IMG/VR virus record: IMGVR_UViG_3300018875_000004
Coordinates: 32,184-96,183 of that record
Strand: one strand, 5' to 3'
DNA from: a virus
DNA length: 64,000 nucleotides
In this document: piece by piece, positions 16,644-32,593 of the stretch
Layout of the letters: every line of letters starts with the position of its first letter
How positions within the stretch are numbered: the stretch's first letter is position 1
Program-made: the position numbers and the translations under genes
The notes under the pieces: generated by a model
What the model saw: the letters and a program-made list of their open reading frames with translations, nothing else
Database searches by the model: none
Told to the model about the DNA's origin: nothing

Positions 16644-17882
16644 TTATCGTGAGTAGTTTAGGCGGACCGCATGTAAGCATGGGTTCACGCCGTTGTACAT
16701 TAGCAGCTTCGTCCGGACCCAGATCCGTTCGGCAAACTGCCCTGACCATTCGTTGTTCTTTAGCGGTGTCAGGAAGCCGTCTGCTTCTTCTCTCAGCAGT
16801 TCATACTCGAAGACCCGGCCCTCCATCAGTTGATCCAGGTTGCGGTCGATACCAAACGCGCTACGATTGAGGAAGACATGTTCTACAGACTCGATGTTGT
16901 AGATGCCGTCCATATCGAATGCCGTTAGGATCGTGCCGCCGCCTGGCTCAAACATGGTCAGGTAGACGCCGATCTCCTGCGCTCCAAGGACGAAAACTTT
17001 CTTGCCGCCGATATCGAGAGGGTTCTTCTGAACCAACGTAATCCGCACCTTCTGTACCGGCACGCTCGGGAAGAACCATCGCTTCCGCGGCGAATACTCA
17101 TTACTGTTTACGGCAGCCATGTCCGGCTGCACAAAACCCTGGATGGTATTCCAAGCGCTGTTATAATGAATCTCCACATTCTTGATCTGCACGCCGCGTT
17201 CCGGATGCGGGTGAACCTGAAGCATATTGATATTCAGATTGTTGACCAAGTGGCTTGGCAGCTCGATCTCCAGGATGACATCCTCTTGATCGGGGCATTC
17301 GGCAATGTTATACGTTACCGTGCGGTGCCAGTAGGATTCATTATCGCCATTGAAAGCGTTGAACAGGTTGTTGTCGATGACTTCGCCTTTCGTATTCGTT
17401 CGTCCGATCTGGACTTTGAGTTCCGATGGAACAACGACAGCGCCCGTCTTCTCGTTGATGGTATGCGTCTTTGGAATCTGGTGAATGAGCGGCACCGTTG
17501 CGTACCGGTAGTTTAAGTCCACATCGCAGCGCAGACTGGTTTCTCCGTTCTCCTGGGAGACGTTCGGGTAAACCGTTGTCATGTCCTGCACGAATCCGGT
17601 CTTAAAGAAGATCGGGTCATACGAGCCTGCTGATTCGATTCGATCCATTTGCGCTGCCAACTCCACGACTCTACGCTCAAGCATCATGGCGTAGTTGTGG
17701 AGTGCTGTGTTCTCTGCAAGGACAATCTGATGGGCCTCAGAGAGGTTCTGAATGTTCAGGTTGCTTTGACGATACAGCTCCACAAGCTCCAGATACTTGT
17801 CGTCTTCGTTTTTATTATAATCCGAGGAAGAAGTAGCGCCCCGGAACTGGGCGCCTCCTGGTTTACTTGTAGGCATTCTCAT
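16644..17882 (-). CDS. Baseplate-associated structural protein (paralog family; coiled coil plus discoidin-like)
   Basis: SSDYN..LELVELY N-terminal motif; NAFNGDNESYW; C-terminal NPCLHAVRL. Confidence 0.7.
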   Translation of the reverse strand: MRMPTSKPGGAQFRGATSSSDYNKNEDDKYLELVELYRQSNLNIQNLSEAHQIVLAENTALHNYAMMLERRVVELAAQMDRIESAGSYDPIFFKTGFVQDMTTVYPNVSQENGETSLRCDVDLNYRYATVPLIHQIPKTHTINEKTGAVVVPSELKVQIGRTNTKGEVIDNNLFNAFNGDNESYWHRTVTYNIAECPDQEDVILEIELPSHLVNNLNINMLQVHPHPERGVQIKNVEIHYNSAWNTIQGFVQPDMAAVNSNEYSPRKRWFFPSVPVQKVRITLVQKNPLDIGGKKVFVLGAQEIGVYLTMFEPGGGTILTAFDMDGIYNIESVEHVFLNRSAFGIDRNLDQLMEGRVFEYELLREEADGFLTPLKNNEWSGQFAERIWVRTKLLMYNGVNPCLHAVRLNYSR

Positions 17883-19809
17883 AGCTCTGACGTCTCCTCT
17901 CTATTTCGGCCAGTCGTTCATTCATCTGATTCATCCGCTGCGAGGTCGGATATAAGCCCTGCATGGGTGTTTCAGCTACAGCAACGGTTACGGTGTAGTT
18001 GACTTCCATCGTCCCACTTTGTAATACGTTACGATTTAGCTGGATATATCCGTTTTCGAGCATAAAGTCCCCAGGACTAATGAGTTCTGCTCCATTTAAG
18101 GATACCACAAGCCTGCTGAATGAGCTTTCTTCCACTCCGGGGATCAGGGGATACGCTGCCTGCTCTTTGTGCGTGGTGATTGTTTTTGTTGCAGAATACG
18201 TAATATTTTCCGATTCTGCTCCATTTTCCCCGTGAAACCACGATTTTACTGCAACGTCTTGATTCTTCGTGTGATTTTCAATAAGAATATGATTCAGTCG
18301 GATGTCCAAAATCTGCTCCTGGTGATCGGACAATACCTTCTCGGATTCGCGCTGTCCACGGTAACGGGCATTGCGCTTCATTACATTCGGGTAGTGGTAG
18401 TTATCATCCCGGCGCTCCACGATCTCCAGCTTGTAGCCATCGTCTGCTGTGGCCAGCCAGCGCAGCTCGTAGAAGCGTGTGAGTGATTGCCCTTGGTCAT
18501 CATTCATAATTGCCTTCAGGATGATCGTGTATCGTTTGCGGGCATCGTACTCATGCAGTGCAGCGTGTATCTTGTATTCTCCACCGGCTGCAATCGTTAC
18601 GGTATCCTGGATGCGTGTGCGGCCGTCCATGTACATAAAGGAGTCGGAGCCGACTTCCACGTTAAAGTCAACCTTCGTCCATGTCGATTCGCCGCTATTT
18701 TTGTAGATGAGCAGAACGTCATCCTTATTTATCGGATGCTCATTCATCATCAATGAGGGGTTTACCTGAATCCGGTTGCTGTCCAGCCCTACCCATAATT
18801 CTATTCCTGGTTTTTTCTTCGGAGGCTCCACGACGGTAACGATCACGCTATCTTCTGCAGATGAACCTTCGATATTTTCTGCGCGGAAAGTGATGGTGTA
18901 TGTTCCGAGCCTGTCAAAGCTCAGCACAGCCTGATCTCCGTTCTGGTTCAGAATCCCTACCCCATCTGGGATACGCCACTGACGCAGGCTGATAGCCACC
19001 GCAGAATCGGCTTTAGCATCGAGGGTCAAACTCTCCCCTTGATACAAGCGCGTGTTGTCTTGGAGGATATCCGCCGTAATAGGCGCGGGATCGGCAACAA
19101 TGATGGTGGCTGCTATTGTGAAATTTTCACCTGTTGAATTTGTCACAGTATACGTGCAGTGGTACGTGCCCGCTTGCTTGAATTTTACAGAGCTGCCCAG
19201 GTTGCTGATCGACAGCAGCGTCATGTAATCTGGGCCGGCATCGTAGAACCAGTTGTAATCTGCGATCGTTGTATCGTCGCCGTGCAGTGTGATTGTGAAG
19301 TCCACTGTGCTGCCGATGCGAACCCGGGCTTCTGCTGGGTCGATCGTTGCGGTCAGAGGAACGTGCGGCGGCGGTGGATCCCGGTACGGTTCAATTTGAT
19401 ACTCTACATAGTCCTGTGCTTCCACGTATCCGATATACGGTTTCCGGTAGCGGTAGTCTGCGCGAACCTGCTGGATCGTCTTTCCGTCCACCCAGTTGCC
19501 GATGGCCACTTCCAGGTTGCTGGAGTTCGGGCCATAGCGCACTACGTCCTGCACCCAGCTCTTCACGCCGTTGTCGTAGACGTAAGCGATAGCAAGGATG
19601 CTACCAAACTTATTACCCGGTGCAGACGCTGGTGGCGCAAAGTTAACCATCCGGATCGTCAGGTTGTCTGCGCTTTGAATCTCTGGCACTACACTGTATC
19701 CCTCGGATGTGCTGATCCCGGTGTTACCCAGGACGTCAGCAAAATCCATCTCGTAAGGAAAAACAGCATCGTCATCGAAATAAAATAGAACCTTTTGTAT
19801 TGTTGGCAT
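17863..19809 (-). CDS. Structural protein with PKD/Ig-like repeats
   Basis: Two PKD-like units (FKQAGTYHCTYTVTN, FDRLGTYTITFRAEN); C-terminal coiled coil. Confidence 0.7.
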   Translation of the reverse strand: MPTIQKVLFYFDDDAVFPYEMDFADVLGNTGISTSEGYSVVPEIQSADNLTIRMVNFAPPASAPGNKFGSILAIAYVYDNGVKSWVQDVVRYGPNSSNLEVAIGNWVDGKTIQQVRADYRYRKPYIGYVEAQDYVEYQIEPYRDPPPPHVPLTATIDPAEARVRIGSTVDFTITLHGDDTTIADYNWFYDAGPDYMTLLSISNLGSSVKFKQAGTYHCTYTVTNSTGENFTIAATIIVADPAPITADILQDNTRLYQGESLTLDAKADSAVAISLRQWRIPDGVGILNQNGDQAVLSFDRLGTYTITFRAENIEGSSAEDSVIVTVVEPPKKKPGIELWVGLDSNRIQVNPSLMMNEHPINKDDVLLIYKNSGESTWTKVDFNVEVGSDSFMYMDGRTRIQDTVTIAAGGEYKIHAALHEYDARKRYTIILKAIMNDDQGQSLTRFYELRWLATADDGYKLEIVERRDDNYHYPNVMKRNARYRGQRESEKVLSDHQEQILDIRLNHILIENHTKNQDVAVKSWFHGENGAESENITYSATKTITTHKEQAAYPLIPGVEESSFSRLVVSLNGAELISPGDFMLENGYIQLNRNVLQSGTMEVNYTVTVAVAETPMQGLYPTSQRMNQMNERLAEIERRRQSYENAYK

Positions 19810-19817
19810 ATGCTACC

Positions 19818-21884
19818 TCACTTTGCTTGCAGCTGCAGCCGCATGATCTTCGGTGTAATGTGGGGAATGCTTTCGTCCCGCTTCATCGAAGCCCGGGCTA
19901 CAACCTGATTATTCTGAATAGAGCTATCAATGACTTCATAGACCAGTTGGAAGATGCAGTTGGTCGGCAGGTAGTTTAGGACAACCTGGTTTTCATAGAT
20001 GGCAAAGTAGTCTCGGTTGTTTGGCGAGATATTGTAATACAGCGAATGCTCGTCCACGATTTTAAGACTATCCTTATCTGCCCTTACCCGTTTCTCCATC
20101 AGGAAGTTAAACTTGCCAAGCAGGGTTTCATTCGGCAGATTGCTGTCGGCAAAGTCTTGCCGCAGCTGCATATCGCCCCAGTGAAACAGGATTTGAATCT
20201 CACTCCAGCCGGCAGCCAGTGTCAGCGTGACTTCTTCGTTGGATGGCACCATGCGTTTGCCGTCTACATAAACTGCATACGTGCCGATTCGTTTACGGAC
20301 TCCGGATACCGTCTGAATGACAGCCAGGGATAAAGGTTCGACTCTGGCTTCTTCGCTATATACACAAGTTGTAAAGCGATACATATTGTCGGACTTTCCG
20401 CCGTTTTCCCGGCGCAAGCTCAACTGGTTGCCGATTGGAATATAGTCGGTACGGATCATCTCCGGCCGGTTATCGTACTGGGTTTTCCATGCGCTGTTCA
20501 GCGGAATCGTGCCGTCAAACTTCACATACGTCCGCTCTCTTCTCCACTGGTTAATGCCGCGCAGCAGGATTGGATTCTGGATGTCGTCAAAGCTGTCCGG
20601 CAGTGTGCCGTCTTTATCATCCTTGAGCAGCCGGAACACCTTCATGCCGTTCTTTACTTCCTCTGTCGTTTCTGCTTGTCCGAACTCGATGTTCTTCGAT
20701 GCTCGTGCGTTGAATGCCACCGTCTTGGAATACTTCGGTGTGCTGTCTTCTGAGGAGCTGATCGGATACCAGATGAGGTTATCCAGTGCAGTCGTATCAT
20801 TCGTCAGGGCGACTTCGTAATCAATCGATGTGCCGAATGGAATATCGTGCGAGGCAGTCAGGGAAACCATGTTGATGTTATCGGAGCTGAAGACGAAAGG
20901 CTGCGTGATCATAACCCCTTCGCTCAGATAACTCTTCTTGGAGATGGAAATGGTTTTAGCACCAAAATAATAATTGTAGACGCCAGCCGAGTTGTCATCG
21001 TGGTCTTTCTTCTCATACGTAAACTTGATGGCCTTCACCTTCAGCTGGGAGAAGTTCCAGATGGCTCGATCGCTGACAGACTGTTTATTATTCTTTTCCG
21101 GAAGCGGCGTAAACGTCGATCCATCCAGGGAGTACTCCACCTGAATAAGCATTGCCTTTCCGTGGTGGGCGACATATTCCACTTCGTTGATTTCTTCTTG
21201 CCCGGCCAGACGGATCGTAAGCTCTGCCTTCACCGTTCCCGGACTGGTCGTCTTGACCACATGCCACCAGGCGGTATTGACGTTATCATCGAATGCGTTG
21301 TTGATCGTCTCGATGGCCGCCGTCTTCAGGTTCGGCGTGAGCGCGGTAAACGTCGCTTGTGAGCCGTTGATCAGAACCTTATTACTCTGCCTTTGATTTT
21401 CTTTCAGTGTGATCTGACCGTTATTCAGATCGATGGCCGTCGTGCTGTTCGCGGTATTCACCCGACTGGTATCGATGAAGTCTTCGATTACCGTATCCAG
21501 GTAGCTGCTGCCGGCGCCTGACACAAGCAGAAGCTGGTCAATCTTTTTGGAGAGCGTGGCCAGCTCATGGCTGATTTTATCCCGCTCCGTTTCCGCAAAG
21601 TTGAAGTCATTCATAATGCGGATGGTTTGGTTAATCGTGGCGTCATACAAGTCGCCAATGTCCTGGTGGATCATCGTCACATTATCATTGTATCTTTCGC
21701 TGTCAGACTTCTCTTTACGGAGAACCTTGAGCGGCGAAAAGGACGGAGCCCCGGGAGTGTGTTCCCGGAGCCATTGTCCCAAATGATAAGTGATGGTTTG
21801 AATACTGGGGTACCGTCCGCGCTGCAGGTAAGACCTTACGATCTTCTCGACGACGCGGGATAGCTGTGTCTGCCGGATGCCCAT
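19818..21884 (-). CDS. Baseplate-associated structural protein (paralog family)
   Basis: SERYN..QDIGDLY; NAFDDNVNTAW; C-terminal TPKIMRLQL. Confidence 0.7.
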   Translation of the reverse strand: MGIRQTQLSRVVEKIVRSYLQRGRYPSIQTITYHLGQWLREHTPGAPSFSPLKVLRKEKSDSERYNDNVTMIHQDIGDLYDATINQTIRIMNDFNFAETERDKISHELATLSKKIDQLLLVSGAGSSYLDTVIEDFIDTSRVNTANSTTAIDLNNGQITLKENQRQSNKVLINGSQATFTALTPNLKTAAIETINNAFDDNVNTAWWHVVKTTSPGTVKAELTIRLAGQEEINEVEYVAHHGKAMLIQVEYSLDGSTFTPLPEKNNKQSVSDRAIWNFSQLKVKAIKFTYEKKDHDDNSAGVYNYYFGAKTISISKKSYLSEGVMITQPFVFSSDNINMVSLTASHDIPFGTSIDYEVALTNDTTALDNLIWYPISSSEDSTPKYSKTVAFNARASKNIEFGQAETTEEVKNGMKVFRLLKDDKDGTLPDSFDDIQNPILLRGINQWRRERTYVKFDGTIPLNSAWKTQYDNRPEMIRTDYIPIGNQLSLRRENGGKSDNMYRFTTCVYSEEARVEPLSLAVIQTVSGVRKRIGTYAVYVDGKRMVPSNEEVTLTLAAGWSEIQILFHWGDMQLRQDFADSNLPNETLLGKFNFLMEKRVRADKDSLKIVDEHSLYYNISPNNRDYFAIYENQVVLNYLPTNCIFQLVYEVIDSSIQNNQVVARASMKRDESIPHITPKIMRLQLQAK

Positions 21885-21898
21885 TACATCACCTCATA

Positions 21899-24800
21899 TC
21901 ATGGATATATACTGTTGTGTTTTTCTTTTCTTATTGTAATGTCGGAGAGCTTCGTTTGACCAGCGCTTTTTAGAAGGATGTCGCATACAGCAACGGAGCC
22001 TCCGCTGAAATCCTCTGCTGCAAGTGGGATAACCTGCAGAACGCTATTGGTTGCTGCATTCACGATCTCTACTTGCGGCAATCGATCCAGCTGCTCTGCT
22101 TTTGCCCCTTGGTAGTGATTCACGACAAGCGTCAACACCCGGCCGACAAAGCCATCAACGGTAATGATCTCTACCTGGTTGGACCAAGGATCATCCTGCC
22201 CTGCTCGGTGAGCCGTGTAATCATAGTTCAGGTACAGTTTATTGGTGCCTTCCACATAGGATTTATAGTTTGGATACTGTGCATCCGGTGGGGAATTGTA
22301 GAATAGATGCTTACTTGAATCCCGATCGAGGAAAGCATGGAAGTCAAAGTCGGATGCTTCTGTTCCCGGAGCCACACCCCAGCGGAGCCGGAACAGCATG
22401 TCGTAGCTGTTTTCGATATTGCCTTCATCCGGAGACGGTGCTGGCGCCGGCACGCTGCAATCGTGTACGTTGATCTGAATCTCCCGAGTCAGTGTTCTGC
22501 CATCTGCGCCGGTAGCCGTGATGATGACCTTGCCGGAGTTCAGCTCACCAGCGTCTTCAGAAATCTGGCCAGAGATGCCTTGCAGCTGGCTGCCGTAGTT
22601 ACCCATGATATCTACGTACTGTCCGCCTGTTGCGTCAGCCATCGGCTTCAGCTGGTTGTATGGCTCACCGCTCATAGGCCCGATGACGTGCAGCTTGATA
22701 TTATTTTCTTTCAGTTTATTAATTGTTTGTGTAACGCCATACACAGAGCGACCATCCCCGTCTTTATCATGAACCGGTGCATCCGTCAGCAGGATATAGT
22801 GCCTTGCTGCTCCTGTCCGGAAGCCGTAGGTCAGTGCGCCATTGGTCGGGTCCATGATCGATTCCAACCCGGATTCGTTCGTGTCGCCGCCGCCGCTGAC
22901 TGCAATCGACCGCAACATACTGATGAAGTTGTCTGCATTGTCGGTCTGGCCAATCTTCACGATCGGCTGCCCGTCATTGACTTCGCTGTACTGGATACAG
23001 CCCAGGCGATAGTTTACATTGTCGGCCTGCAGCCTTGAAATGAATACGGCCAGGTTGTCTGCCACTTTGCCGATTGGTGCCGACATGCTGCCGGAGTAGT
23101 CGATCAGGAACGTAATGTCAGCCCTGCCGTTGTCCGTGGTTGTGCCGCCACCGGTACCGAATGCCGATGATGGAATCGTAAAGCGGAAGTCCTCATGTAC
23201 TTCATCCCCATCTTGGCTATATACCTGGCTGCCCCGATAGGTCGCTTTGATGTTTGCAACGCTTGGGAACATTTCAGCAAAGCCGCCGATCGTCAGGGAA
23301 TCCGTATTACATTGTTCGATAACAGTTGGATTCGAGGATGGCTCCGTAATCTCCAGCTTCGGATCACGCCCTGCGCCTGTCTCAGGGTCAGAGTTGTGAA
23401 TCGGATCGATGGAGCAGACCATATTTGTAAACAGGTCAACGTGCTTACTTACTACGAAGTCTCCTGTCTTGCCGATGATTGGTGCGTTGCTGTAATCGCC
23501 GGCTTGCACTTCTGCTACCCATGGCAGATTGCTCATGGTCTTCGGCCCGCCGATCATCCACTCCTTCCGTTTTACCCCAGCCGTTTTAAAGTTAATATCC
23601 GTTGCCCATGCCGTTTGTGTCCGGTCATAGTAATCCTTGAAGATGACCCCGATACCGGTCAGCTGGATATTGTTCACGCCGGTTGCGCCCCGGATCAGCA
23701 GCGACACGCCTTTGTAGTAATCCGACCATCCAGCGACCAACCGCACGTCTCCGGCTTTTGTTGGAACCGTCAGCTCCTGGGTGACGAGCCATTCCAGCGG
23801 CACGATGTTCGTCTGCATCTGATTATCCACGTCGCTGTAGTACTGGAAGATGATCTTGTCCAGCAGCAGGCAGTCTCGCACCGGATTCTTTGTTGGGTCG
23901 TATGGCGGCACGTCCGGGCTGGTTGGGTCATCCGTATTCGGTCCGGCATTCTCCGGATCAATGACGTCTTTGTTAATTGGACACTGGTTCGTCGTGAACT
24001 CATTCGGGAACGAGAACTTCACGTAGTCCCCTTTGTATCCAAGGGATGGACTCATGCTGTAGTTGCCGTATGCTTTGATCTGCTGAATCCAGCGGCTGTT
24101 GTCTTTCTCAGCCGGATCGCCAATCATACGCTCACTGTTCTTCACGCCTTCGGACTGGAAGAAGATACTGTTTGCCCATGCCGTTTTTGCATTATTGTGT
24201 TCATCCAGATAGTTAATCCCGATGGAACTCAGCTGGAATCCGTAGCCGGTATTGTTTCCGCCGTCTCGGAACCATGCGGCAATCGTGTTGTCGTCGCCCC
24301 ATCCGAACATAGCCGTTGCACCATCGCCGTTATCGATCTCATACGGCAGCCAGTCGGCAGGGATATCGAACTTCTTAATATCCTGGATGTTGGCATCGTA
24401 ATACTCGACATGTAGCGTATCGAACATCAAGCAGTCTCTCACGGTTGGCCCGTTCGGATCGATGGAGCAGTCCTTGATTGTCACCGTCATGCTGTCAGAT
24501 GCTTCGTTGCCTTCGCTGTCGTAAGCCTTCACCTCAACCACGAAACTGTCTCCGACTTCCCAATCCAGTGTCGGGTACCGGAAATTGAACGTCTGTTCAT
24601 ACGGCGATGTGGCCATCCAGAATGGGCTGTGGTATCCATCGATGACAATTGTCTCGCCTGTGCTTTCGATGCTGGCCGTGCTCACAGGACCAATCGACTT
24701 CAGGTTCTTGACGTACTTCTCCATGAAGGCGAACTGCTGCGGGAAGTTGGCTCTCAGGAAACCCGGGTTGATGATATACAGTCTGTAAGCTTCTGCAAAG

Positions 24801-26878
24801 CCCTCTGCCGGCTGTGTGCATCCGTAGGCTGTAACTGGGGCTTCCTTGCCATTGTCGAGCTTGGTGCCAGCGCTGCTCTTCTTCAGCTTGTAATACTGGC
24901 TCATGCCAGACCAGTTGATCGCATCCCACCCGCTGATCTCCTGCCACTCTTTGTAGTCGTGCAGGTTCAGGCCGATGTCGCTGGCGTATTTATGGCCAGC
25001 ATTGGAAGTGTAGTAGTCTGCTCCGTAGAACGCAACGGCGTGTCCGATTTCGTGGATGGCGACTTCTCCGGCAATGTATGGCCGGCATACGACCTGGTTT
25101 TGATCCAGTGTGTACAGGTCGGCATTGCCCAAGCTGCCGATTGGGAGCCAGTAGCTCTTGTATACGTCCAGCGGGGTCAGCGTATCACTCTGATCAGTAG
25201 ATGGATTCGACGTGTAATCAGTTGGCCGGTGCGCCATCAGGTTAATCACGCTGGCGTTCAGGGCATCAGGTTCAAAATTAATATAAGAATAGAATTGCGG
25301 AAGCTCTCCGTCCTTGGCCCATGCAGCAACACTCGGATTCGTCTTGATGTCGTTAAAGTCGATCCAGTGGTACGTGTAGGTGTTCGTCTTCGCCACCAGG
25401 TCAGACAGCGTATCGATGATGTCTCCATCCAGGTAAGCACTCGCGCTGCTGAAGAAGAAGCAGATGTTCTTGATCTTGTAGGTCGCATAGATACTGCCCA
25501 GCTGCAGCGTGGTCAGCCCCGGGAGGTTTGTCTGCGCCCAAGACTTAAAGCTACTCCACGGCTGCGGCAGTGTCACGAGGCCCTTGAGGTTATCCTGGTG
25601 CATCTTCCAAAGGAAAGCGTGGAAGCTCTGAATGGTCAGGTCACTCTTGCTGTAGATGGCATCCTCACCCGGCGCCAGCTTCTGTCGGACGGCTTCCATA
25701 AAGTCCAACCACTCGTTGCGTCCTTTGAAGAAGTTCGGCTCGATCGTCAGTGGATAAATATATCCATTTGTAATTTGTACATTGCCGCTGAACGCTTTGT
25801 TGCCTGTCCAGTAATCCTGGTTGATGCTCGATGGCGATACGGATCCGTCTACAAAGTAGCTGATGCCATTGCTCGTTGCTGGCGGTGTTGTCGGATTCGT
25901 TGGTGTGGGATTCGTTGGTGCTGTACCGCCGCCCGATGTACTTTCATCGATCGCGCTGCCGTTAACCAGCATAACCACTTTCGTAATCGGATACGGTCCA
26001 TCCACGACGCCGGATACCATCAGGTCGTCACCGTAACACAGTTCGGTCGTCTTTGGCGTGATCGTTACCTTTAGCTCGTCCGGCTGATTTGGATTCGGGT
26101 CGTCTTTATCTGGAATGCCATCCCCATCAGAATCCTTATTTGGATCATCCTCTTCATTACAGTCAACGAAGTATACGAAGTCTGTTGTCGTTGCAGACTC
26201 TCCGTCCTGTGAGTAAGCCGTGGCCACCAGCTGCAGATACGTATCTTTCACTACGCCCCATTCGGTAAGCTGGGCCAGCGTTATGTTATCTGTGATGGCT
26301 TCCTCTGTGCTGCCGGCATAGTTGTATTCCTTAAATGGAATCTCTGTACGAGCGGCAGAACCTTTCTTGCCGATCTTGAACTTCAGCACGACTTTAATCA
26401 GTCGGGAATCACCATGCGCTTTAGCTGTAACCTTGATTGGATAGTCGATGCCCAAGCAATACTTATCTGGACTATCTTTTCTCTCCAATATCCGGATCGT
26501 CACCTTGCCGCCTGCAGATACGCCATCGGACGGATCATCGTCTGGTTCTTCTCCGCTACCTGGCGTACCCGGTGTGCCGTTATCGCCGCCGCCCGGATTA
26601 GAAGGGTCGGTGCCGCCTCCAGGATTACCTGGGGTGCTGCCGCCGCCACCTCCGCCAGGATTCCCGGGATTACTCCCTCCCCCGCTTCCGCCGCCCGCAT
26701 CTGGGTCGGTTGGGTTCGGTGGTGTTGGTGGGAAGTAGGGCGGGTCAGTAACTTCGGTGCCGGTGTCCTTCTCCCCTGCTGCTCGTCGCAGGGAAGCTTC
26801 ACTGTCAGAAGGGACGCTACCGGTATAAGCTTTGATGGTGAATCCTTTTAAGAGTGGTGTTTTATTTTTCTGCGTCAT
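21899..26878 (-). CDS. 1659-aa multidomain protein: Ig-like domains, HEXXH zinc metalloprotease (lethal-factor-like), vWA and a YfaP-like C-terminus
   Basis: HEIGH..EGFAEAY..P..L....P..F.FM; MIDAS DYSGS..GGD..E..LLTDA; DSDGDGIPDKDD Ca-type repeat; G/P-rich linkers. Confidence 0.8.
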   Translation of the reverse strand: MTQKNKTPLLKGFTIKAYTGSVPSDSEASLRRAAGEKDTGTEVTDPPYFPPTPPNPTDPDAGGGSGGGSNPGNPGGGGGGSTPGNPGGGTDPSNPGGGDNGTPGTPGSGEEPDDDPSDGVSAGGKVTIRILERKDSPDKYCLGIDYPIKVTAKAHGDSRLIKVVLKFKIGKKGSAARTEIPFKEYNYAGSTEEAITDNITLAQLTEWGVVKDTYLQLVATAYSQDGESATTTDFVYFVDCNEEDDPNKDSDGDGIPDKDDPNPNQPDELKVTITPKTTELCYGDDLMVSGVVDGPYPITKVVMLVNGSAIDESTSGGGTAPTNPTPTNPTTPPATSNGISYFVDGSVSPSSINQDYWTGNKAFSGNVQITNGYIYPLTIEPNFFKGRNEWLDFMEAVRQKLAPGEDAIYSKSDLTIQSFHAFLWKMHQDNLKGLVTLPQPWSSFKSWAQTNLPGLTTLQLGSIYATYKIKNICFFFSSASAYLDGDIIDTLSDLVAKTNTYTYHWIDFNDIKTNPSVAAWAKDGELPQFYSYINFEPDALNASVINLMAHRPTDYTSNPSTDQSDTLTPLDVYKSYWLPIGSLGNADLYTLDQNQVVCRPYIAGEVAIHEIGHAVAFYGADYYTSNAGHKYASDIGLNLHDYKEWQEISGWDAINWSGMSQYYKLKKSSAGTKLDNGKEAPVTAYGCTQPAEGFAEAYRLYIINPGFLRANFPQQFAFMEKYVKNLKSIGPVSTASIESTGETIVIDGYHSPFWMATSPYEQTFNFRYPTLDWEVGDSFVVEVKAYDSEGNEASDSMTVTIKDCSIDPNGPTVRDCLMFDTLHVEYYDANIQDIKKFDIPADWLPYEIDNGDGATAMFGWGDDNTIAAWFRDGGNNTGYGFQLSSIGINYLDEHNNAKTAWANSIFFQSEGVKNSERMIGDPAEKDNSRWIQQIKAYGNYSMSPSLGYKGDYVKFSFPNEFTTNQCPINKDVIDPENAGPNTDDPTSPDVPPYDPTKNPVRDCLLLDKIIFQYYSDVDNQMQTNIVPLEWLVTQELTVPTKAGDVRLVAGWSDYYKGVSLLIRGATGVNNIQLTGIGVIFKDYYDRTQTAWATDINFKTAGVKRKEWMIGGPKTMSNLPWVAEVQAGDYSNAPIIGKTGDFVVSKHVDLFTNMVCSIDPIHNSDPETGAGRDPKLEITEPSSNPTVIEQCNTDSLTIGGFAEMFPSVANIKATYRGSQVYSQDGDEVHEDFRFTIPSSAFGTGGGTTTDNGRADITFLIDYSGSMSAPIGKVADNLAVFISRLQADNVNYRLGCIQYSEVNDGQPIVKIGQTDNADNFISMLRSIAVSGGGDTNESGLESIMDPTNGALTYGFRTGAARHYILLTDAPVHDKDGDGRSVYGVTQTINKLKENNIKLHVIGPMSGEPYNQLKPMADATGGQYVDIMGNYGSQLQGISGQISEDAGELNSGKVIITATGADGRTLTREIQINVHDCSVPAPAPSPDEGNIENSYDMLFRLRWGVAPGTEASDFDFHAFLDRDSSKHLFYNSPPDAQYPNYKSYVEGTNKLYLNYDYTAHRAGQDDPWSNQVEIITVDGFVGRVLTLVVNHYQGAKAEQLDRLPQVEIVNAATNSVLQVIPLAAEDFSGGSVAVCDILLKSAGQTKLSDITIRKEKHNSIYP

Positions 26879-28710
26879 TGCTCATCCTCCGGTCGTTCGA
26901 ATAGCATTCTCAGTCGCAGGCTGTATACTGGATATTCAGATTCGATATACCCTGCCTTATTGGTCAGCGCCTGACTGGATTTGTCCACTTGCTGGACAGT
27001 GTAGATTTTTGGCGGCGCTTCTTTCCCGCCTGCGCTGTACTCCTGATGCTCCAGTGGCGAGATTGGGTACCAGGTGGCTCCGTCATCGATGGACACAAAA
27101 TACTTAATCCATTTGTACTCCGTGCCGGGTTCCGCACTTTCAATCATCAGTGGATTATCCTCGTCCACAGACAGCGTAATCTTCTCCAGCGGCTGGTCGA
27201 AGTAATACGGCTCTGTGACGATCTCTCCGCTCGTTTCATACTCGTAAGAGTAAATGTTAATCCCACGGATTCCGATGCAGTAGCGCCAGCCCTCGAAGCG
27301 CTCTGTGCCAATATCGATGGTCTGTTGGGTGATCCCTCTTGATAGGGATGTGATCACATCATCCAAGATAGCGCCAGAAGCATCCTGACCTTGCAGTGGA
27401 TAGTAGGCTTCGACGCTGGAGTCCTTCACGCTGACTTCGACTCCAATATCCTGCAGGGCAACCAGCGGACCGTCTACGCGCGGCAGATAGCCGGGCTTTA
27501 CCTGCTTGGTGACGGTGTTCATCGCGTAATCCACATCGCCGCCTGTCTGCTGATTCTGCTCATAATACTCATGACCGATGTCGGTATAGTATTTGGTCTT
27601 CTGCTCGAACAGTACGGAGATGACCTTCGCTTTCTGCGGCGAGAAGTGGAATATATAATCATCATCTTTTTTATTTGCCCCGATAACCGATACCGGTACG
27701 CCGCTGCCATCTGAAATCAGAATGTCTTTGACGATGGCCGTCTTCGCCCCCTGGTTCGGCGGCGTGTACATCTCCACGTCGATCGCATTCACGGTAGACG
27801 CTTCGTCGAGGACGATCTGCATGTGCAGCTTCAGCACACCGTTGTCCGGATCCCGAGCCCATTTTAATTTTTGATTTCCATTCACCTGATAATCGAAGCC
27901 GAGATTCTTGGCCACGTTCTGTTTATCATGATCGCGGACGTTGACCAGTTCGAACTCGAACCAGGTGTCGGGGTTACCATCCAGTACCGCACCGTAGGCA
28001 GCGTGGTTGTTCTTGCCGCCGACATACTGGTACGTGTAATCGTTCTGGGTGTTGCCGGCACCGACTGTCACCTCGTGGTTGTTCCCTGGGAAGCCGTTGG
28101 ACTCTGTACCCAGGATGAAGCTGTCATACGTCTTGTTTCCGGGAATGATCGTTACCTGTGCGCTCTGACTCAGGTTGATGCTGTCTGTTTGCGGCAGCGT
28201 CACGATTCCGTTGTTGATACTGGCAGCATTGCCGGTCGTCCGGTCGTAGTCGATCTTGTCGTTGTTCACGAAGTCGTTGCGGCGGAAGGTAATCTTCCCG
28301 TTCGATTGCATGTTGGAAGACAGCAGCTGCAGGTCTTTCAGCTTATCCTGAATGACGCTGAACTTGCTTTGCAGAATACTCTGCTGCACCATGTTGTGGT
28401 TGAAGTCGGTGTATAGCGCACGTCCGATGATATCGATCTCCTGATACATCATAACCAGGTCACGCTTGATCTCGTCCATCATGTTATTGTAATCTTCCGA
28501 CCATGGAGGCCCGCCTTCCGGCGCAAGCCGCAGCATCATTTGCGGCTGGCCGATCGACGTGAAGAAGGCTTCGAATGCCTGGAAGACATTCTGAATCAGC
28601 TTGGTGTTGGTCTTGATGCTGCCGTCATTGAATGCAGCATGGGCTGCATCGAACTGGGCTTTCGCCTGCTCATAGAGCAGCTGCGAGTTATTCTTAATAG
28701 GCTCACTCAT
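26875..28710 (-). CDS. Baseplate-associated structural protein (paralog family), lacking the terminal TP strand
   Basis: SEDYN..KRDLVMMY; AVLDGNPDTWFE; YFVSIDDGATW; ends LRLRMLFERPEDEQ. Confidence 0.7.
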   Translation of the reverse strand: MSEPIKNNSQLLYEQAKAQFDAAHAAFNDGSIKTNTKLIQNVFQAFEAFFTSIGQPQMMLRLAPEGGPPWSEDYNNMMDEIKRDLVMMYQEIDIIGRALYTDFNHNMVQQSILQSKFSVIQDKLKDLQLLSSNMQSNGKITFRRNDFVNNDKIDYDRTTGNAASINNGIVTLPQTDSINLSQSAQVTIIPGNKTYDSFILGTESNGFPGNNHEVTVGAGNTQNDYTYQYVGGKNNHAAYGAVLDGNPDTWFEFELVNVRDHDKQNVAKNLGFDYQVNGNQKLKWARDPDNGVLKLHMQIVLDEASTVNAIDVEMYTPPNQGAKTAIVKDILISDGSGVPVSVIGANKKDDDYIFHFSPQKAKVISVLFEQKTKYYTDIGHEYYEQNQQTGGDVDYAMNTVTKQVKPGYLPRVDGPLVALQDIGVEVSVKDSSVEAYYPLQGQDASGAILDDVITSLSRGITQQTIDIGTERFEGWRYCIGIRGINIYSYEYETSGEIVTEPYYFDQPLEKITLSVDEDNPLMIESAEPGTEYKWIKYFVSIDDGATWYPISPLEHQEYSAGGKEAPPKIYTVQQVDKSSQALTNKAGYIESEYPVYSLRLRMLFERPEDEQ

Positions 28711-31174
28711 CTCTTACCTCCTGATCGTAAGTCTGGCAACGGATAGACCAACTATAGACAGACGGTGTAACGCTCTCGTAGCCGGCGCTATTGCGGCGCA
28801 GGATGGCTTTCAATCGAACGTCTGTTGTCAGATAGTAATAGTCCACGGTAATGTTCTTCAGCTCACCGTCAAAAGCGGATATCGGGAAGTACAGCGTGTT
28901 GCCGATCTGTGCAAAGTTCTTTCCATCATTTTCATTTTGCAGCCGGTTCTTATCGTAGGTTCCGCTGGCGTAGTCTGTAATGTTCTGGTATTCTACGCCG
29001 CCGACCCGGACGATCACCGGATAGTAAAGCTTATCCATGCTCAGTTGGCTGCTGTCCTGCGTATAGCGGTCATCGTGCGAATTGTAGTCGAAGATTTCGC
29101 TCCGGTACACATACGGGATATGCTGAAGCGTGACCGTGTTGTTGGCGCTCACCGCATTGAAGTATTCGCCAGTCTCACCCTGTGGATTGATATACTGCAT
29201 GGGCTGCACCTTGTCAGCATCCACATCCACAAAGTACGCTTCGTTCGCTGGTTTGTAGTCCACGGTGTAAATGCTTGATGCCGAGTAATACGTCTGCCGG
29301 ATCCCGATGCGTTTTCCATCATCAGTGATGACGTACTGCTCCCCGCCGATCGGCACGCCGTCTCTGCGGACGGTCACGGTGTCTTTCGAGATAGCCGGGA
29401 AGCGGAAGCTGAAGTTAATCGTGTTTTGCAGCAGGTAATCATCTCCGCCTACAGTGCTGCCGAGCAGCAGCTCTCCCTTGACGTAATCCTTGTTCGCCGG
29501 CATGATCGGCATCCATGCAGTCGGCTCCGGATTCTTCTTGTAGCTGATGTAATACTCGATATCGGTGATCCGTGCCTGGTCCCCATTCTCTAAATCCATA
29601 TCATGGTGCTTCTCTTCGGTGGTCAGCGACATACGTTTCACGTTGCCGGATACCGGCAGCCCCTCGGAGACGTAGATTGATCGCGGCAGATACTTCCGCC
29701 CGGTGATGCCGATGTTGTAGAAGCCGTACAGGTACGACAGCTTATTGGCTGCGATGTATTGCTGGCTGAGTGTGCCTTCGCTCGCGGCCGCTTCATTCAT
29801 ATTGGCGCTCACTGATCGCAGCGCAAGCATCATCGGGTTTTGGTAATTGCCCATGCGGACTTGCTCCATGGCGCTCTTGGCTGCGCTCAGTACGGACTTG
29901 GCTTTATCGCCCTGCTTGGCTGCCCAATCTTGAAGGGCGCTCAGGTACTGGCTCCAGCCGGTCAGTTGATTCTTTTTATCGAACTCTGCAATACTCTCCC
30001 CCGGCTCCCGCTTGTCTGCGATCGCATCGGTACCGAGACGCTGCAGCTCTGCATTGCCGGCAATTTTATTCCATAGTTCCATGTTATTCTGTTCATCCAC
30101 ATTCACCAGGTAGTTCTCTTTGATGTAGTTCTCCTGACGAACCAGGATGCGCAGCTTCGCAATGTCCACCGATGGGAACTGGAATGTCATTTGACCGACC
30201 GACTTCTTGCTGCGCTGGTATGGATTCTCGTGATCCGGAGTCACCAGCTTGTAGGTCTTTCCGGCGTAGTCCGAAGACTCATAGCCGTGGATGGCCACAA
30301 TCTCCAGCGGGTAAGACGCATACGGATCGAAGGAGATTTCGGATACGGTAGTGATGCCGTTAAGCTGAATCTCCAGCTCGCACATCGCCCCATCCATTTC
30401 ATATCCTTCATAGTCGTGCGTCCACAGGTCGCTGATGTCCTGCGTGATTACATCGTCAGCCAGAATGACTTCTGCCCAGAAAGTTTCCTGGGAGCCATCG
30501 ATCGCATTGTTGATGGGGTTGTTCGTATTTGTGGCTACGGTGCCGATTCGGTTCAGCACCTGAATCGATGCCAGCTTCCGGCCGTAAGGGTTCTTCAGCT
30601 GGTCGATCGTCTCAAAGGAAGCCAGCTGCAGCGCATCGCTGACAATCTCGGCTCCGTATTTGCTGGCGAGAAACTGTCCGTACCGATCCTTGCGCAGGAT
30701 GGCCAGATTGGTTTCGTCGGTCTCGGTATACTGCGGTGCTTTGTATTGCTCATGGACGCCTTCCACAAACCCATCTGTATTTTTCATGATCAGGGTCTGC
30801 TTATCAACTTCGGCATTCAGTGCCGATATCTTCTTGCGGATGTCAGCCAGCATCGATCTGGCCAGCCGCTGGTTATCATTCATCAGACTATCAATCTGAT
30901 TCGACGCGGCAAACAGCGTGGAAAGATCGAAAGCAATCTCCTCCAGGTTGCTGTTGTATCCCTTCGAGTCTGTCTTGCCGGTTTGATGCCGAGCCTGAAA
31001 GGTTGGCGTGGCGTTGGTGGAATCCAACTGCTTCAGCAGCCGCTCCAATTCCGCTTGAAACTCGGTATCGCTTTTGATATATCCTTCTTTCTGCTTCAGC
31101 TCCAGAAGCTCCATGAGCTTTTGCCTCTGGGTCTGCGGCAGCGTGGACAGGAATTGATCTAAATAATTAGACAT
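28703..31174 (-). CDS. Baseplate-associated structural protein (paralog family)
   Basis: SKGYN..AFDLSTLF; NAIDGSQETFW; C-terminal RLKAILRR..TPSVYSWSI. Confidence 0.7.
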   Translation of the reverse strand: MSNYLDQFLSTLPQTQRQKLMELLELKQKEGYIKSDTEFQAELERLLKQLDSTNATPTFQARHQTGKTDSKGYNSNLEEIAFDLSTLFAASNQIDSLMNDNQRLARSMLADIRKKISALNAEVDKQTLIMKNTDGFVEGVHEQYKAPQYTETDETNLAILRKDRYGQFLASKYGAEIVSDALQLASFETIDQLKNPYGRKLASIQVLNRIGTVATNTNNPINNAIDGSQETFWAEVILADDVITQDISDLWTHDYEGYEMDGAMCELEIQLNGITTVSEISFDPYASYPLEIVAIHGYESSDYAGKTYKLVTPDHENPYQRSKKSVGQMTFQFPSVDIAKLRILVRQENYIKENYLVNVDEQNNMELWNKIAGNAELQRLGTDAIADKREPGESIAEFDKKNQLTGWSQYLSALQDWAAKQGDKAKSVLSAAKSAMEQVRMGNYQNPMMLALRSVSANMNEAAASEGTLSQQYIAANKLSYLYGFYNIGITGRKYLPRSIYVSEGLPVSGNVKRMSLTTEEKHHDMDLENGDQARITDIEYYISYKKNPEPTAWMPIMPANKDYVKGELLLGSTVGGDDYLLQNTINFSFRFPAISKDTVTVRRDGVPIGGEQYVITDDGKRIGIRQTYYSASSIYTVDYKPANEAYFVDVDADKVQPMQYINPQGETGEYFNAVSANNTVTLQHIPYVYRSEIFDYNSHDDRYTQDSSQLSMDKLYYPVIVRVGGVEYQNITDYASGTYDKNRLQNENDGKNFAQIGNTLYFPISAFDGELKNITVDYYYLTTDVRLKAILRRNSAGYESVTPSVYSWSIRCQTYDQEVRDE

Positions 31175-31534: not shown

Positions 31535-32593
31535 TTATTTGGAGACGACTCCTGCCTGTCCGTCAAACGGCTCATACTCGTTCGTATCTGGATTCAATTT
31601 CTCCAGCACAAAGTGGCTGAGATTCGGATGATCGTTGTAGCTGAACATCGCGTGGACGTTTCCGTTTTGAACTTCGACCTGCAGGCCTTTCGGTGTAATG
31701 CTTTCCAGAAGAATGTCCTTCCGGTTTCGAGCGATGGAGTAGTCCGCCGTCCAGTTCGTTCCCTTCATCTGCTTGATGTCGCTGACGACTTCGGTCACGA
31801 CAGCTTCCATGCGCTGAACAAAGGTAAGCGTCGGGCTGGATTTCGTAAGCATCATCTGCAGCGTGTAATACAGGAAGTCTTCCGGTACATTGTTGAAGTT
31901 CAGTCGTGCCGGATAAACCAGCGTGACAGGCACCTTCGGAGACTCAGATAGGATGATCAGTCCGCTTTCGTAAACGGTTCCTGTGATCGCTTCCTGATTG
32001 GTGCCCAGCACGACTCGATCGCCTTTGGCATCAAGAACCGTCACATCTCCTTTTACATATTCCACGCCTTCCTGCGGAGCAAGCTGCACTTCGTAGTGAT
32101 TCAGCGGGAACTCGCTCTTGTAATTGAATGGCAGGATGATATCCTTCTCTGCGAAACTCTGTCCTTCTTCGGCTACGGCTTGCAGCTCCCGGATGCGGTA
32201 GTCCAGCTTGAGCCCATCGCTGATTGAACTGTCTACACTGGCAATCGCGTTGTTGATCTCGTCTTTGATATACGGATCAATGTCCACGCCTTTACCGGTG
32301 GCGTTCTCTGCGATTTCGATTACCTGGGCTTTCAGGTCATCCAGCAGTTTTTTCAGGCGCTGTCCCTTCGCAGCAACAACCCCGTAAGTGGCCGTGTTCA
32401 GCTCGGCCAGTGCATCCTCCGCCTTAACGATCGCGCTGATCGCATTGGTGCGGTTGATGTTGATCTGTGGCAGGGCGCTCAGGATTTGGATTTTATTATT
32501 CTCCCAATCCGTCATATCCTGCTGCAGACCGTTGATCTTCGTTTCGAGGCCATTCACAAATTGAATGACATCTTTAGTATTCGAGATTGGCAT
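31535..32593 (-). CDS. Coiled-coil structural protein
   Basis: AAGGAGG RBS; N-terminal coiled coil and a beta-rich C-terminus; followed by a hairpin at ~31511-31534. Confidence 0.7.
   Translation of the reverse strand: MPISNTKDVIQFVNGLETKINGLQQDMTDWENNKIQILSALPQININRTNAISAIVKAEDALAELNTATYGVVAAKGQRLKKLLDDLKAQVIEIAENATGKGVDIDPYIKDEINNAIASVDSSISDGLKLDYRIRELQAVAEEGQSFAEKDIILPFNYKSEFPLNHYEVQLAPQEGVEYVKGDVTVLDAKGDRVVLGTNQEAITGTVYESGLIILSESPKVPVTLVYPARLNFNNVPEDFLYYTLQMMLTKSSPTLTFVQRMEAVVTEVVSDIKQMKGTNWTADYSIARNRKDILLESITPKGLQVEVQNGNVHAMFSYNDHPNLSHFVLEKLNPDTNEYEPFDGQAGVVSK

Follow-up and report, generated by a model that had tools for sequence, protein, structure and literature searches.

A gene pair cut inside a predicted baseplate domain of a jumbo phage, with the missing beta-strand encoded at the start of the downstream gene

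In chaperone-usher pili, the strand missing from one subunit is supplied by the N-terminal extension of the next, the pilins being incomplete immunoglobulin (Ig) folds, kept by a chaperone in the periplasm until exchange takes place at the usher. Inter-protein beta-sheet augmentation is also an assembly principle of a Gram-positive myophage baseplate, that of phi812, and in the crystal structure of the baseplate tripod of the Lactococcus phage Tuc2009 a C-terminal beta-hairpin of BppU completes the sheet of domain 2 of BppA, giving a composite that resembles a titin domain (PMC4742702). At the level of genes, Antonov et al. 2013 described a "translational coupling" class of conserved frame transitions (PMC3711429). 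Here we analyze two adjoining genes in a 64,000-nucleotide (nt) stretch of viral DNA (positions 32,184 to 96,183 of IMG/VR record IMGVR_UViG_3300018875_000004), hereafter the window, that encode a predicted virion protein of 611 amino acids (aa; P0001) and a 1659-aa protein (P0002) forming a long arm. Comparison with related genomes shows that these are two genes with overlapping stop and start and that a strand belonging to the first protein is encoded, under selection, at the N-terminus of the second. We think it probable that the pair arose by gene fission with translational coupling and that the strand completes the fold of the 611-aa protein in trans. The parts of the locus on which this reading bears are the following, in window coordinates:

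26875-28710, minus strand: P0001, the predicted 611-aa virion protein of baseplate type (translation)
21899-26878, minus strand: P0002, the 1659-aa protein (translation)
26875-26878, minus strand: ATGA overlap of the P0001 stop and the P0002 start, 4 nt shared, P0002 in the -1 frame
26886-26890, minus strand: GGAGG, the Shine-Dalgarno sequence of P0002, 7 nt before its ATG and inside the acidic tail codons of P0001
26893-26928, minus strand: last self-encoded strand of P0001, residues about 595-606, ending in Arg-Pro (DSSP strand 597-605 in the AlphaFold2 (AF2) model of P0001)
26726-26878, minus strand: anchor module of P0002, residues 1-51, made of the donor strand, a Ser/Asp/Glu-rich segment and Pro-Pro-Tyr-Phe (alignment, BLASTP)
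26825-26860, minus strand: putative donor beta-strand, P0002 residues 7-18 (conservation, complex model)
26507-26725, minus strand: Gly/Pro/Asn/Asp-rich linker, P0002 residues 52-124, hypervariable among relatives
21899-26506, minus strand: the arm of P0002, with Ig-like modules, a HEIGH region, tandem repeats, a vWA domain and a C-terminal domain

On the minus strand, which carries all genes of this block, the junction reads CCGGAGGATGAGCAATGACG. The TGA stop of P0001 (26875-26877) interlocks with the ATG start of P0002 (26876-26878), and in the frame of P0002 another TGA lies two codons ahead of this ATG, so that any frame change joining the two proteins would be confined to about 6 nt. P0001 ends a few residues past an Arg-Pro motif that is kept in all of its homologs, one strand short, while P0002 opens with a short (T/S)P-led segment of alternating hydrophobic residues, followed by a Ser/Asp/Glu-rich stretch, a Pro-Pro-Tyr-Phe motif and a Gly/Pro/Asn/Asp-rich tract. 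No promoter-like or terminator-like sites were found near the junction. An earlier note, made from this sequence alone, had pointed out the ATGA overlap with GGAGG 7 nt upstream, the C-terminal tails of three paralogs of 688, 823 and 412 aa, and a flexible Gly/Pro/Asn/Asp tether in P0002; the overlap and the GGAGG are both present, the tails agree with the translations, and the tether spans residues 52-124. Its claim that P0001 stops one strand short is much better backed by orthologs in which the strand follows in frame than by the paralog tails from which it was drawn, and its claim that P0002 begins with the missing strand is borne out by the alignment of the first 55 residues of P0002 at exactly this place in fused and cis relatives, as detailed below.

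The first sign of fused relatives is that both proteins match one and the same profile of 1867 positions, phrog_21108, of which P0001 fills positions 1-604 (E 3e-206) and residues 771-1156 of P0002 fill positions 912-1287 (E 1e-44). Orthologs of P0001 found by tblastn belong to Moorella phage MTATph1 and to 0305phi8-36-like Bacillus jumbo phages. In 0305phi8-36 itself the counterpart is gp172, a virion structural protein of low copy number (tblastn covers 95% of the query), for which GenBank notes a single peptide by mass spectrometry and which lies between gp171 and gp173; the neighbors of P0001, an 823-aa protein (phrog_20243) upstream and the 688-aa protein (phrog_19683) after the arm, match this order. 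The window belongs to a 96-kb fragment of a virus record; contigs that are closely related to it measure 197-229 kb and come from Paenibacillus and metagenomes.

The homologs, which the earlier note had proposed to check for being fused or split at the same point, fall into armless, fused and same-point split forms. In the armless forms (gp172, Moorella CDS0054, P0018 at locus L009, P0019 and at least 58 others), Arg-Pro is followed in frame by a loop and a (T/S)P strand, with a stop soon after. The fused forms number 45, with lengths of 1377-2955 aa, and come from Bacillus, Priestia, Alicyclobacillus, Virgibacillus and metagenomes; they hold the 611-like part, a loop of 25-30 residues, the strand, the linker and a variable arm in one frame; one of them, P0094, has the same repeat and vWA arm as P0002. 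In the split forms, nine proteins with lengths of 528-618 aa and 56-89% identity to P0001, the chain ends right after Arg-Pro, and the loop falls 15-20 residues short of that in fused relatives. Residues 1-55 of P0002 align with residues 613-666 of fused P0083 (BLASTP E 2e-11) and with armless P0018 (BLASTP E 7e-8), neither being a chance match, and the anchor module as a whole is homologous to the C-terminal end of cis and fused relatives, P0018 stopping right after it. Since armless relatives hold the strand in cis and the start of P0002 aligns there, the strand belongs to the upstream module. A genome scan of the contig collection yielded only one fused locus, from Oceanobacillus, and a metagenome scan one more split locus (L014, of the L006 type), all other loci being cis or fused. 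A megablast search of the junction region against the phage collection gave no match, and a homolog search with P0002 residues 1-60 returned only P0002 itself and a TCA20 ortholog, because arms vary too much in length and this segment is too short.

Junction DNA was read in five of the nine split lineages, namely the window and the loci L004 (89% identity), L005 (63%), L006/L014 (61%) and L010/L013 (60%), while P0012, P0014, P0016 and P0017 are represented by their protein ends. In all five the start of the downstream gene overlaps the upstream TGA, as GTGA in L010/L013 and as ATGA in the others, and the downstream frame is -1. The four genomes with ATGA keep GGAGG, exactly 7 nt and ATG although the tail residues differ, and L010 has a G/A-rich run ahead of its GTG start. 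The downstream open reading frames (ORFs) are intact throughout, at 814-1660 aa, and the junction nucleotides differ among all five genomes. In codons 1-20 of P0002 the window differs from L004 by 11 changes, all of them synonymous, and past the junction the 611-aa frame meets stops at once. The donor strand is the best-conserved part of the first 125 residues of the arm, with P8, L10, I15 and A17 invariant across the alignment of split and fused forms, and it is followed by the hypervariable linker. Judging from these codon and residue comparisons, the donor strand is under purifying selection in the downstream frame.

In P0001 a helical N-terminal region precedes a discoidin/CBM32-like jelly roll into which a beta-sandwich is inserted. 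We modeled the complex of P0001 residues 140-611 with P0002 residues 1-60 in three runs, each partner given as an alignment; the pass mark of the tool is reached by 58 of 80 solved complexes and by 2 of 110 mismatched pairs, a calibration that holds only roughly here because our own alignments were used. The interface score ipSAE was 0.67, 0.66 and 0.66, compared to 0.03, 0.00 and 0.00 for the controls, and at least 71% of the contacts are common to the runs. Residues 2-21 of P0002 contact P0001 at 140-147, 168-172, 504-522 and 598-610 and pair most tightly, in antiparallel orientation, with 169-172 at one edge and 512-516 at the opposite edge. In the model the P0002 strand thereby takes an inner position, linking the inserted sandwich to the strands with which the jelly roll begins. 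Searched with the family profile, the PDB yields no chain at E 0.01 or below, which makes it unlikely that the pass reflects a similar complex memorized by the predictor. In the AF2 model of the cis relative P0018, the last strand (619-629) has a predicted local distance difference test (pLDDT) score of about 89 and its neighbors 141-146 and 511-521 are strands, whereas in P0001 modeled alone the equivalent of 141-146 is lost, that of 511-521 shrinks to 510-512, and the block 521-530 has a pLDDT of 61 compared to 85 in P0018. This comparison is soft evidence because the sequences differ.

Docking of P0002 onto P0001 by strand completion, as the earlier note had suggested, is thus upheld by computation: the split is real, the cut is conserved, the strand is under purifying selection and the P0002 N-terminus is docked by the complex model with an ipSAE of 0.66 compared to 0.03 for the best control; the binding itself is a prediction. 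The likeness to pili drawn in the same note is functional only, the acceptor being a discoidin/CBM32-like jelly roll and not the Ig fold of pilins.

The mechanism that we favor would start from an ancestral gene for one long virion protein, composed of a gp172-like baseplate module, a flexible linker and a variable adhesin or enzyme arm. In a Paenibacillus-type subclade of 0305phi8-36-like jumbo phages, the gp172-like module would then have had the loop preceding its last beta-strand shortened and cut, leaving an upstream gene that ends just past Arg-Pro and whose acidic and glycine tail codons double as the Shine-Dalgarno sequence. With the downstream start overlapping the TGA, both proteins would be made from one mRNA by coupled translation, which should favor prompt pairing of the two ends. 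The orphaned strand is predicted to insert between P0001 residues of about 140-147/168-172 and about 504-522, beside the last cis strand at 598-610; the complex model with its controls and the conservation of the strand suggest that it would complete the jelly roll there and fasten the 1659-aa arm to the baseplate through a linker of about 70 residues. The fission may be neutral, as the fragments would bind tightly and be made side by side.

Several points weigh against this reading. The junction DNA covers only five of the nine split lineages, and the interaction of P0002 with P0001 is predicted only. The P0002 partner has a pLDDT of about 49-51, low outside the strand because most of the 60 residues beyond it are uncertain, and its own fold is uncertain likewise. 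The pLDDT differences between P0001 alone and P0018 come from models of different sequences, and the modeled contacts describe the trans strand of P0002 and not the cis strand of P0018. Finally, the sequence would be compatible with a low-level fusion product made by frameshifting.

It could also be that the fission is real and the strand vestigial, with the 611-aa protein folding without it and the arm either held by other contacts or not a stoichiometric partner, which we regard as rather improbable. AF2 does still predict most of the P0001 fold without the strand, the complex score expresses the model's own confidence only, and the conserved PPYF motif and the linker could bind something else. 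However, a vestige would hardly be expected to be the best-conserved and selectively maintained part of the arm's start, neighboring strands lose definition without it in the comparison of P0001 with P0018, the controls of the complex model are near zero, and armless relatives retain the strand in cis.

A very small chance remains for programmed -1 ribosomal frameshifting, or other recoding, at the last codons of the 611-aa frame, which would give a fusion of about 2270 aa as for lambda G/GT and which the earlier note had placed at GAG CAA. The -1 relation of the frames holds in all five split genomes, the purine-rich Shine-Dalgarno-like run upstream is of a kind that can stimulate frameshifting in some genes, and coupling and frameshifting can coexist (Antonov et al., PMC3711429). 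Yet none of the five genomes has an X XXY YYZ slippery site in the shift window of about 6 nt, where the nucleotides all differ, and no conserved RNA structure follows, the RNAalifold consensus amounting to -1.7 kcal/mol with five weak pairs far downstream. Moreover, what is conserved is a start that exactly overlaps the stop and, at 7 nt from it, GGAGG, neither of which a frameshift site needs and both of which coupled initiation needs. Least credible of all is an assembly or sequencing error or a recent inactivating indel of 1 nt, in which case the gene of about 2270 aa would in truth be fused or its arm a dying pseudogene: one base lost from the short A run before the ATG would give this picture in a single genome, but the same cut in five independent assemblies with differing junctions excludes an artefact or fresh indel, and the long ORFs open in all of them, the purely synonymous changes in the strand codons and a loop shorter by 15-20 residues rather than by 1 nt speak against this idea of the earlier note as well.

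Returning to gene fission with strand completion in trans, we asked from a tree of 19 rows, built from the part upstream of the cut, how often the cut has occurred. Fused P0084 is the sister of the split protein P0021 of L010/L013 (support 100/98), and this pair groups with fused P0083 (100/100), apart from the main split clade. Split forms appear as one group in no bootstrap tree, and a single origin of the split is rejected by this tree and by the approximately unbiased (AU) test (p 2.7e-6, a somewhat optimistic value given that the split group was named after seeing a quick tree). The upstream protein of L013 is closest to P0084 in every window of 80 columns, and its anchor module also resembles that of L008. 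An origin of the fused sisters P0083 and P0084 by re-fusion is unlikely since both keep the long ancestral loop. With a single origin rejected, the sequences indicate that the same loop was cut at least twice or that a short junction tract moved between phages, and this recurrence at least suggests the loop as an unusually permissive cut site.

P0018 (L009:5216-7210), an armless single chain, falls inside the split clade with moderate support. Its loop is no longer than two split ends put together, the chain ends directly behind the PPYF motif, and the next gene is the 688-like paralog; P0018 may have arisen from a split ancestor by re-joining or by deletion of the arm. L010:1-14798 and L013:1-17794 are both part of IMGVR_UViG_2889049205_000001, a "plasmid" of P. 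rhizovicinus of 228841 bp that has the pair of 611-like gene and arm twice, near both ends. The copies are non-identical, with upstream frames open for 575 and 644 codons counted from the preceding stop and downstream ORFs of 960 and 814 aa that differ at their C-termini. They could have arisen by duplication and divergence, or else two variants of a terminally redundant genome may have been assembled together. In metagenomic L022 (6001-8492 and downstream), another 509 open codons follow the match and lead into a discoidin motif of the kind usual in the 688-like paralog; two neighboring paralogs may have fused here, which would be the reverse of the fission described above.

Whether the cut is not only recurrent but also adaptive, a natural "plug and socket" loop opened at least twice so that socket and arm became separate co-translated parts, is a further step that we hold to be doubtful. 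If it were true, arms could be exchanged by recombination at the gene boundary or socket and arm be made in different amounts, and a compact one-strand non-covalent protein tag would have evolved in nature. The swappable plug-in effector arm imagined in the earlier note finds no support: the 45 fused relatives (1377-2955 aa, some having vWA and some not) show as much variation in arm length and domain content as the split forms, and this equal diversity leaves no signal of a benefit from swapping.

Regarding the arm itself, the vWA domain of P0002 (residues 1254-1435, window 22574-23119) matches Pfam VWA with E 2e-17, and tandem repeat modules lie at residues of about 771-985 and 990-1156. The repeat likewise occurs twice in fused P0094, with 46% identity across the repeats. 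The HEIGH region has no Pfam match at E 0.1 or better.

The fold of the upstream module is best seen in the AF2 model of P0018 (mean pLDDT 77.8), which shows the helical N-terminus and the discoidin/CBM32-like jelly roll with inserted sandwich. VIA-align superimposes model residues of about 177-493 on CBM32 modules with Z of about 14 (root-mean-square deviation (rmsd) 2.4 over 126 aligned residues for 4zy9_A), and the 50 fold matches listed all have Z of at least 12.4, most of them being CBM32, discoidin-type or galactose-binding domains. Among the Foldseek matches listed for the 611-like model the best are baseplate chains of phi812 (E about 1e-7, at a template modeling (TM) score of only about 0.2 over the whole model), and VIA aligns a phi812 baseplate chain with Z 12.5, rmsd 3.8 and 136 residues. 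A location of P0001 at the periphery of the baseplate or tail tip would be a reasonable guess from these matches.

P0001 is surrounded by three related proteins:

28703-31174, minus strand: 823-aa paralog, gp171-like, last strand in cis (phrog_20243)
19818-21884, minus strand: 688-aa paralog, gp173-like, last strand in cis (phrog_19683)
16644-17882, minus strand: 412-aa paralog, gp175-like, last strand in cis (phrog_19670)

All four belong to PHROG "virion structural protein" families with weak cross-hits between families, and hhalign scores the 688-aa protein at 96.7% and the 823-aa protein at 90.5%, covering only the N-terminal helices plus the start of the beta domain or central parts. By these profile matches they are distant paralogs. 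Pfam F5_F8_type_C matches the paralogs P0004 (E 1e-8) and P0005 and not P0001. In armless relatives the 688-like gene stands directly after the 611-like gene. The four paralogs (16644-31174, minus strand) share an N-terminal helical module with a conserved S-x-D/E-Y-N ... D-L motif, and as no more than a lead these modules may form a hetero-oligomeric bundle like the trifurcation unit of T4 gp6/gp7. Between the 688- and 412-aa paralogs, the minus strand encodes at 17863-19809 a protein of 648 aa that carries two PKD/Ig domains (PKD by Pfam, E 1e-9), at the place of which 0305phi8-36 has only the small gp174.

No new principle is established here, as sheet completion between baseplate proteins has already been solved in Tuc2009 and phi812. 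Particular to this locus would be that a single N-terminal strand closes a jelly roll of discoidin type, that armless, fused and split states are all extant, and that the cut is found more than once at one and the same loop, its 4-nt overlap conserved. A natural gene cut inside a folded domain would thus have turned a covalent link into a one-strand non-covalent joint, kept down to 60% protein identity and probably made more than once. For annotation this means that such gene pairs should not be "repaired" as frameshifts. The locus also gives a predicted attachment point of the protease/vWA arm for modeling the baseplates of Gram-positive jumbo phages and, in a stretch of about 20 residues, a minimal docking peptide that could be tested.

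The closest described proteins are gp172 of 0305phi8-36 and the fused phrog_21108 proteins of Bacillus, Priestia and Alicyclobacillus phages of about 200 kb and phage-like plasmids, which are orthologous to P0001 with 25-60% identity over the full length. Like P0001 they have a gp171-like gene upstream and a gp173-like gene downstream, and the fused forms share the linker, the repeats and the vWA arm. They differ in that they keep the last strand in the same polypeptide, gp172 without an arm, while the window pair is cut in the loop before this strand. Compared to pili, the fold would be discoidin/CBM32-like, the setting cytoplasmic and the origin a gene fission, and no chaperone, for which we did not search, is expected; a literature search for donor-strand complementation in phage baseplates gave no relevant report. 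The phi812 joint consists of linkers threading between dimers and does not stem from a split gene, and the fold match of the P0001-like model to phi812 is partial. With Tuc2009 the locus shares, here by prediction, a peripheral baseplate protein of carbohydrate-binding type that is fastened by beta-sheet completion in trans into a composite looking like one ordinary domain. However, Tuc2009 uses a two-strand C-terminal hairpin in an Ig/titin-like sandwich and not a single N-terminal strand in a discoidin-like jelly roll; the PDB search above gave no sequence relation; BppA and BppU are absent among the fold matches listed for the 611-like model, though they may still be related to it; and no fused ancestor is documented in PMC4742702, while fission from a fused gene is directly visible here. 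As in the coupling class of Antonov et al., upstream stop and downstream start are co-located, with a Shine-Dalgarno run and no conserved shift site. Their survey (PMC3711429) assumed that a conserved domain is not divided between genes, whereas the cut described here falls inside a structural domain.

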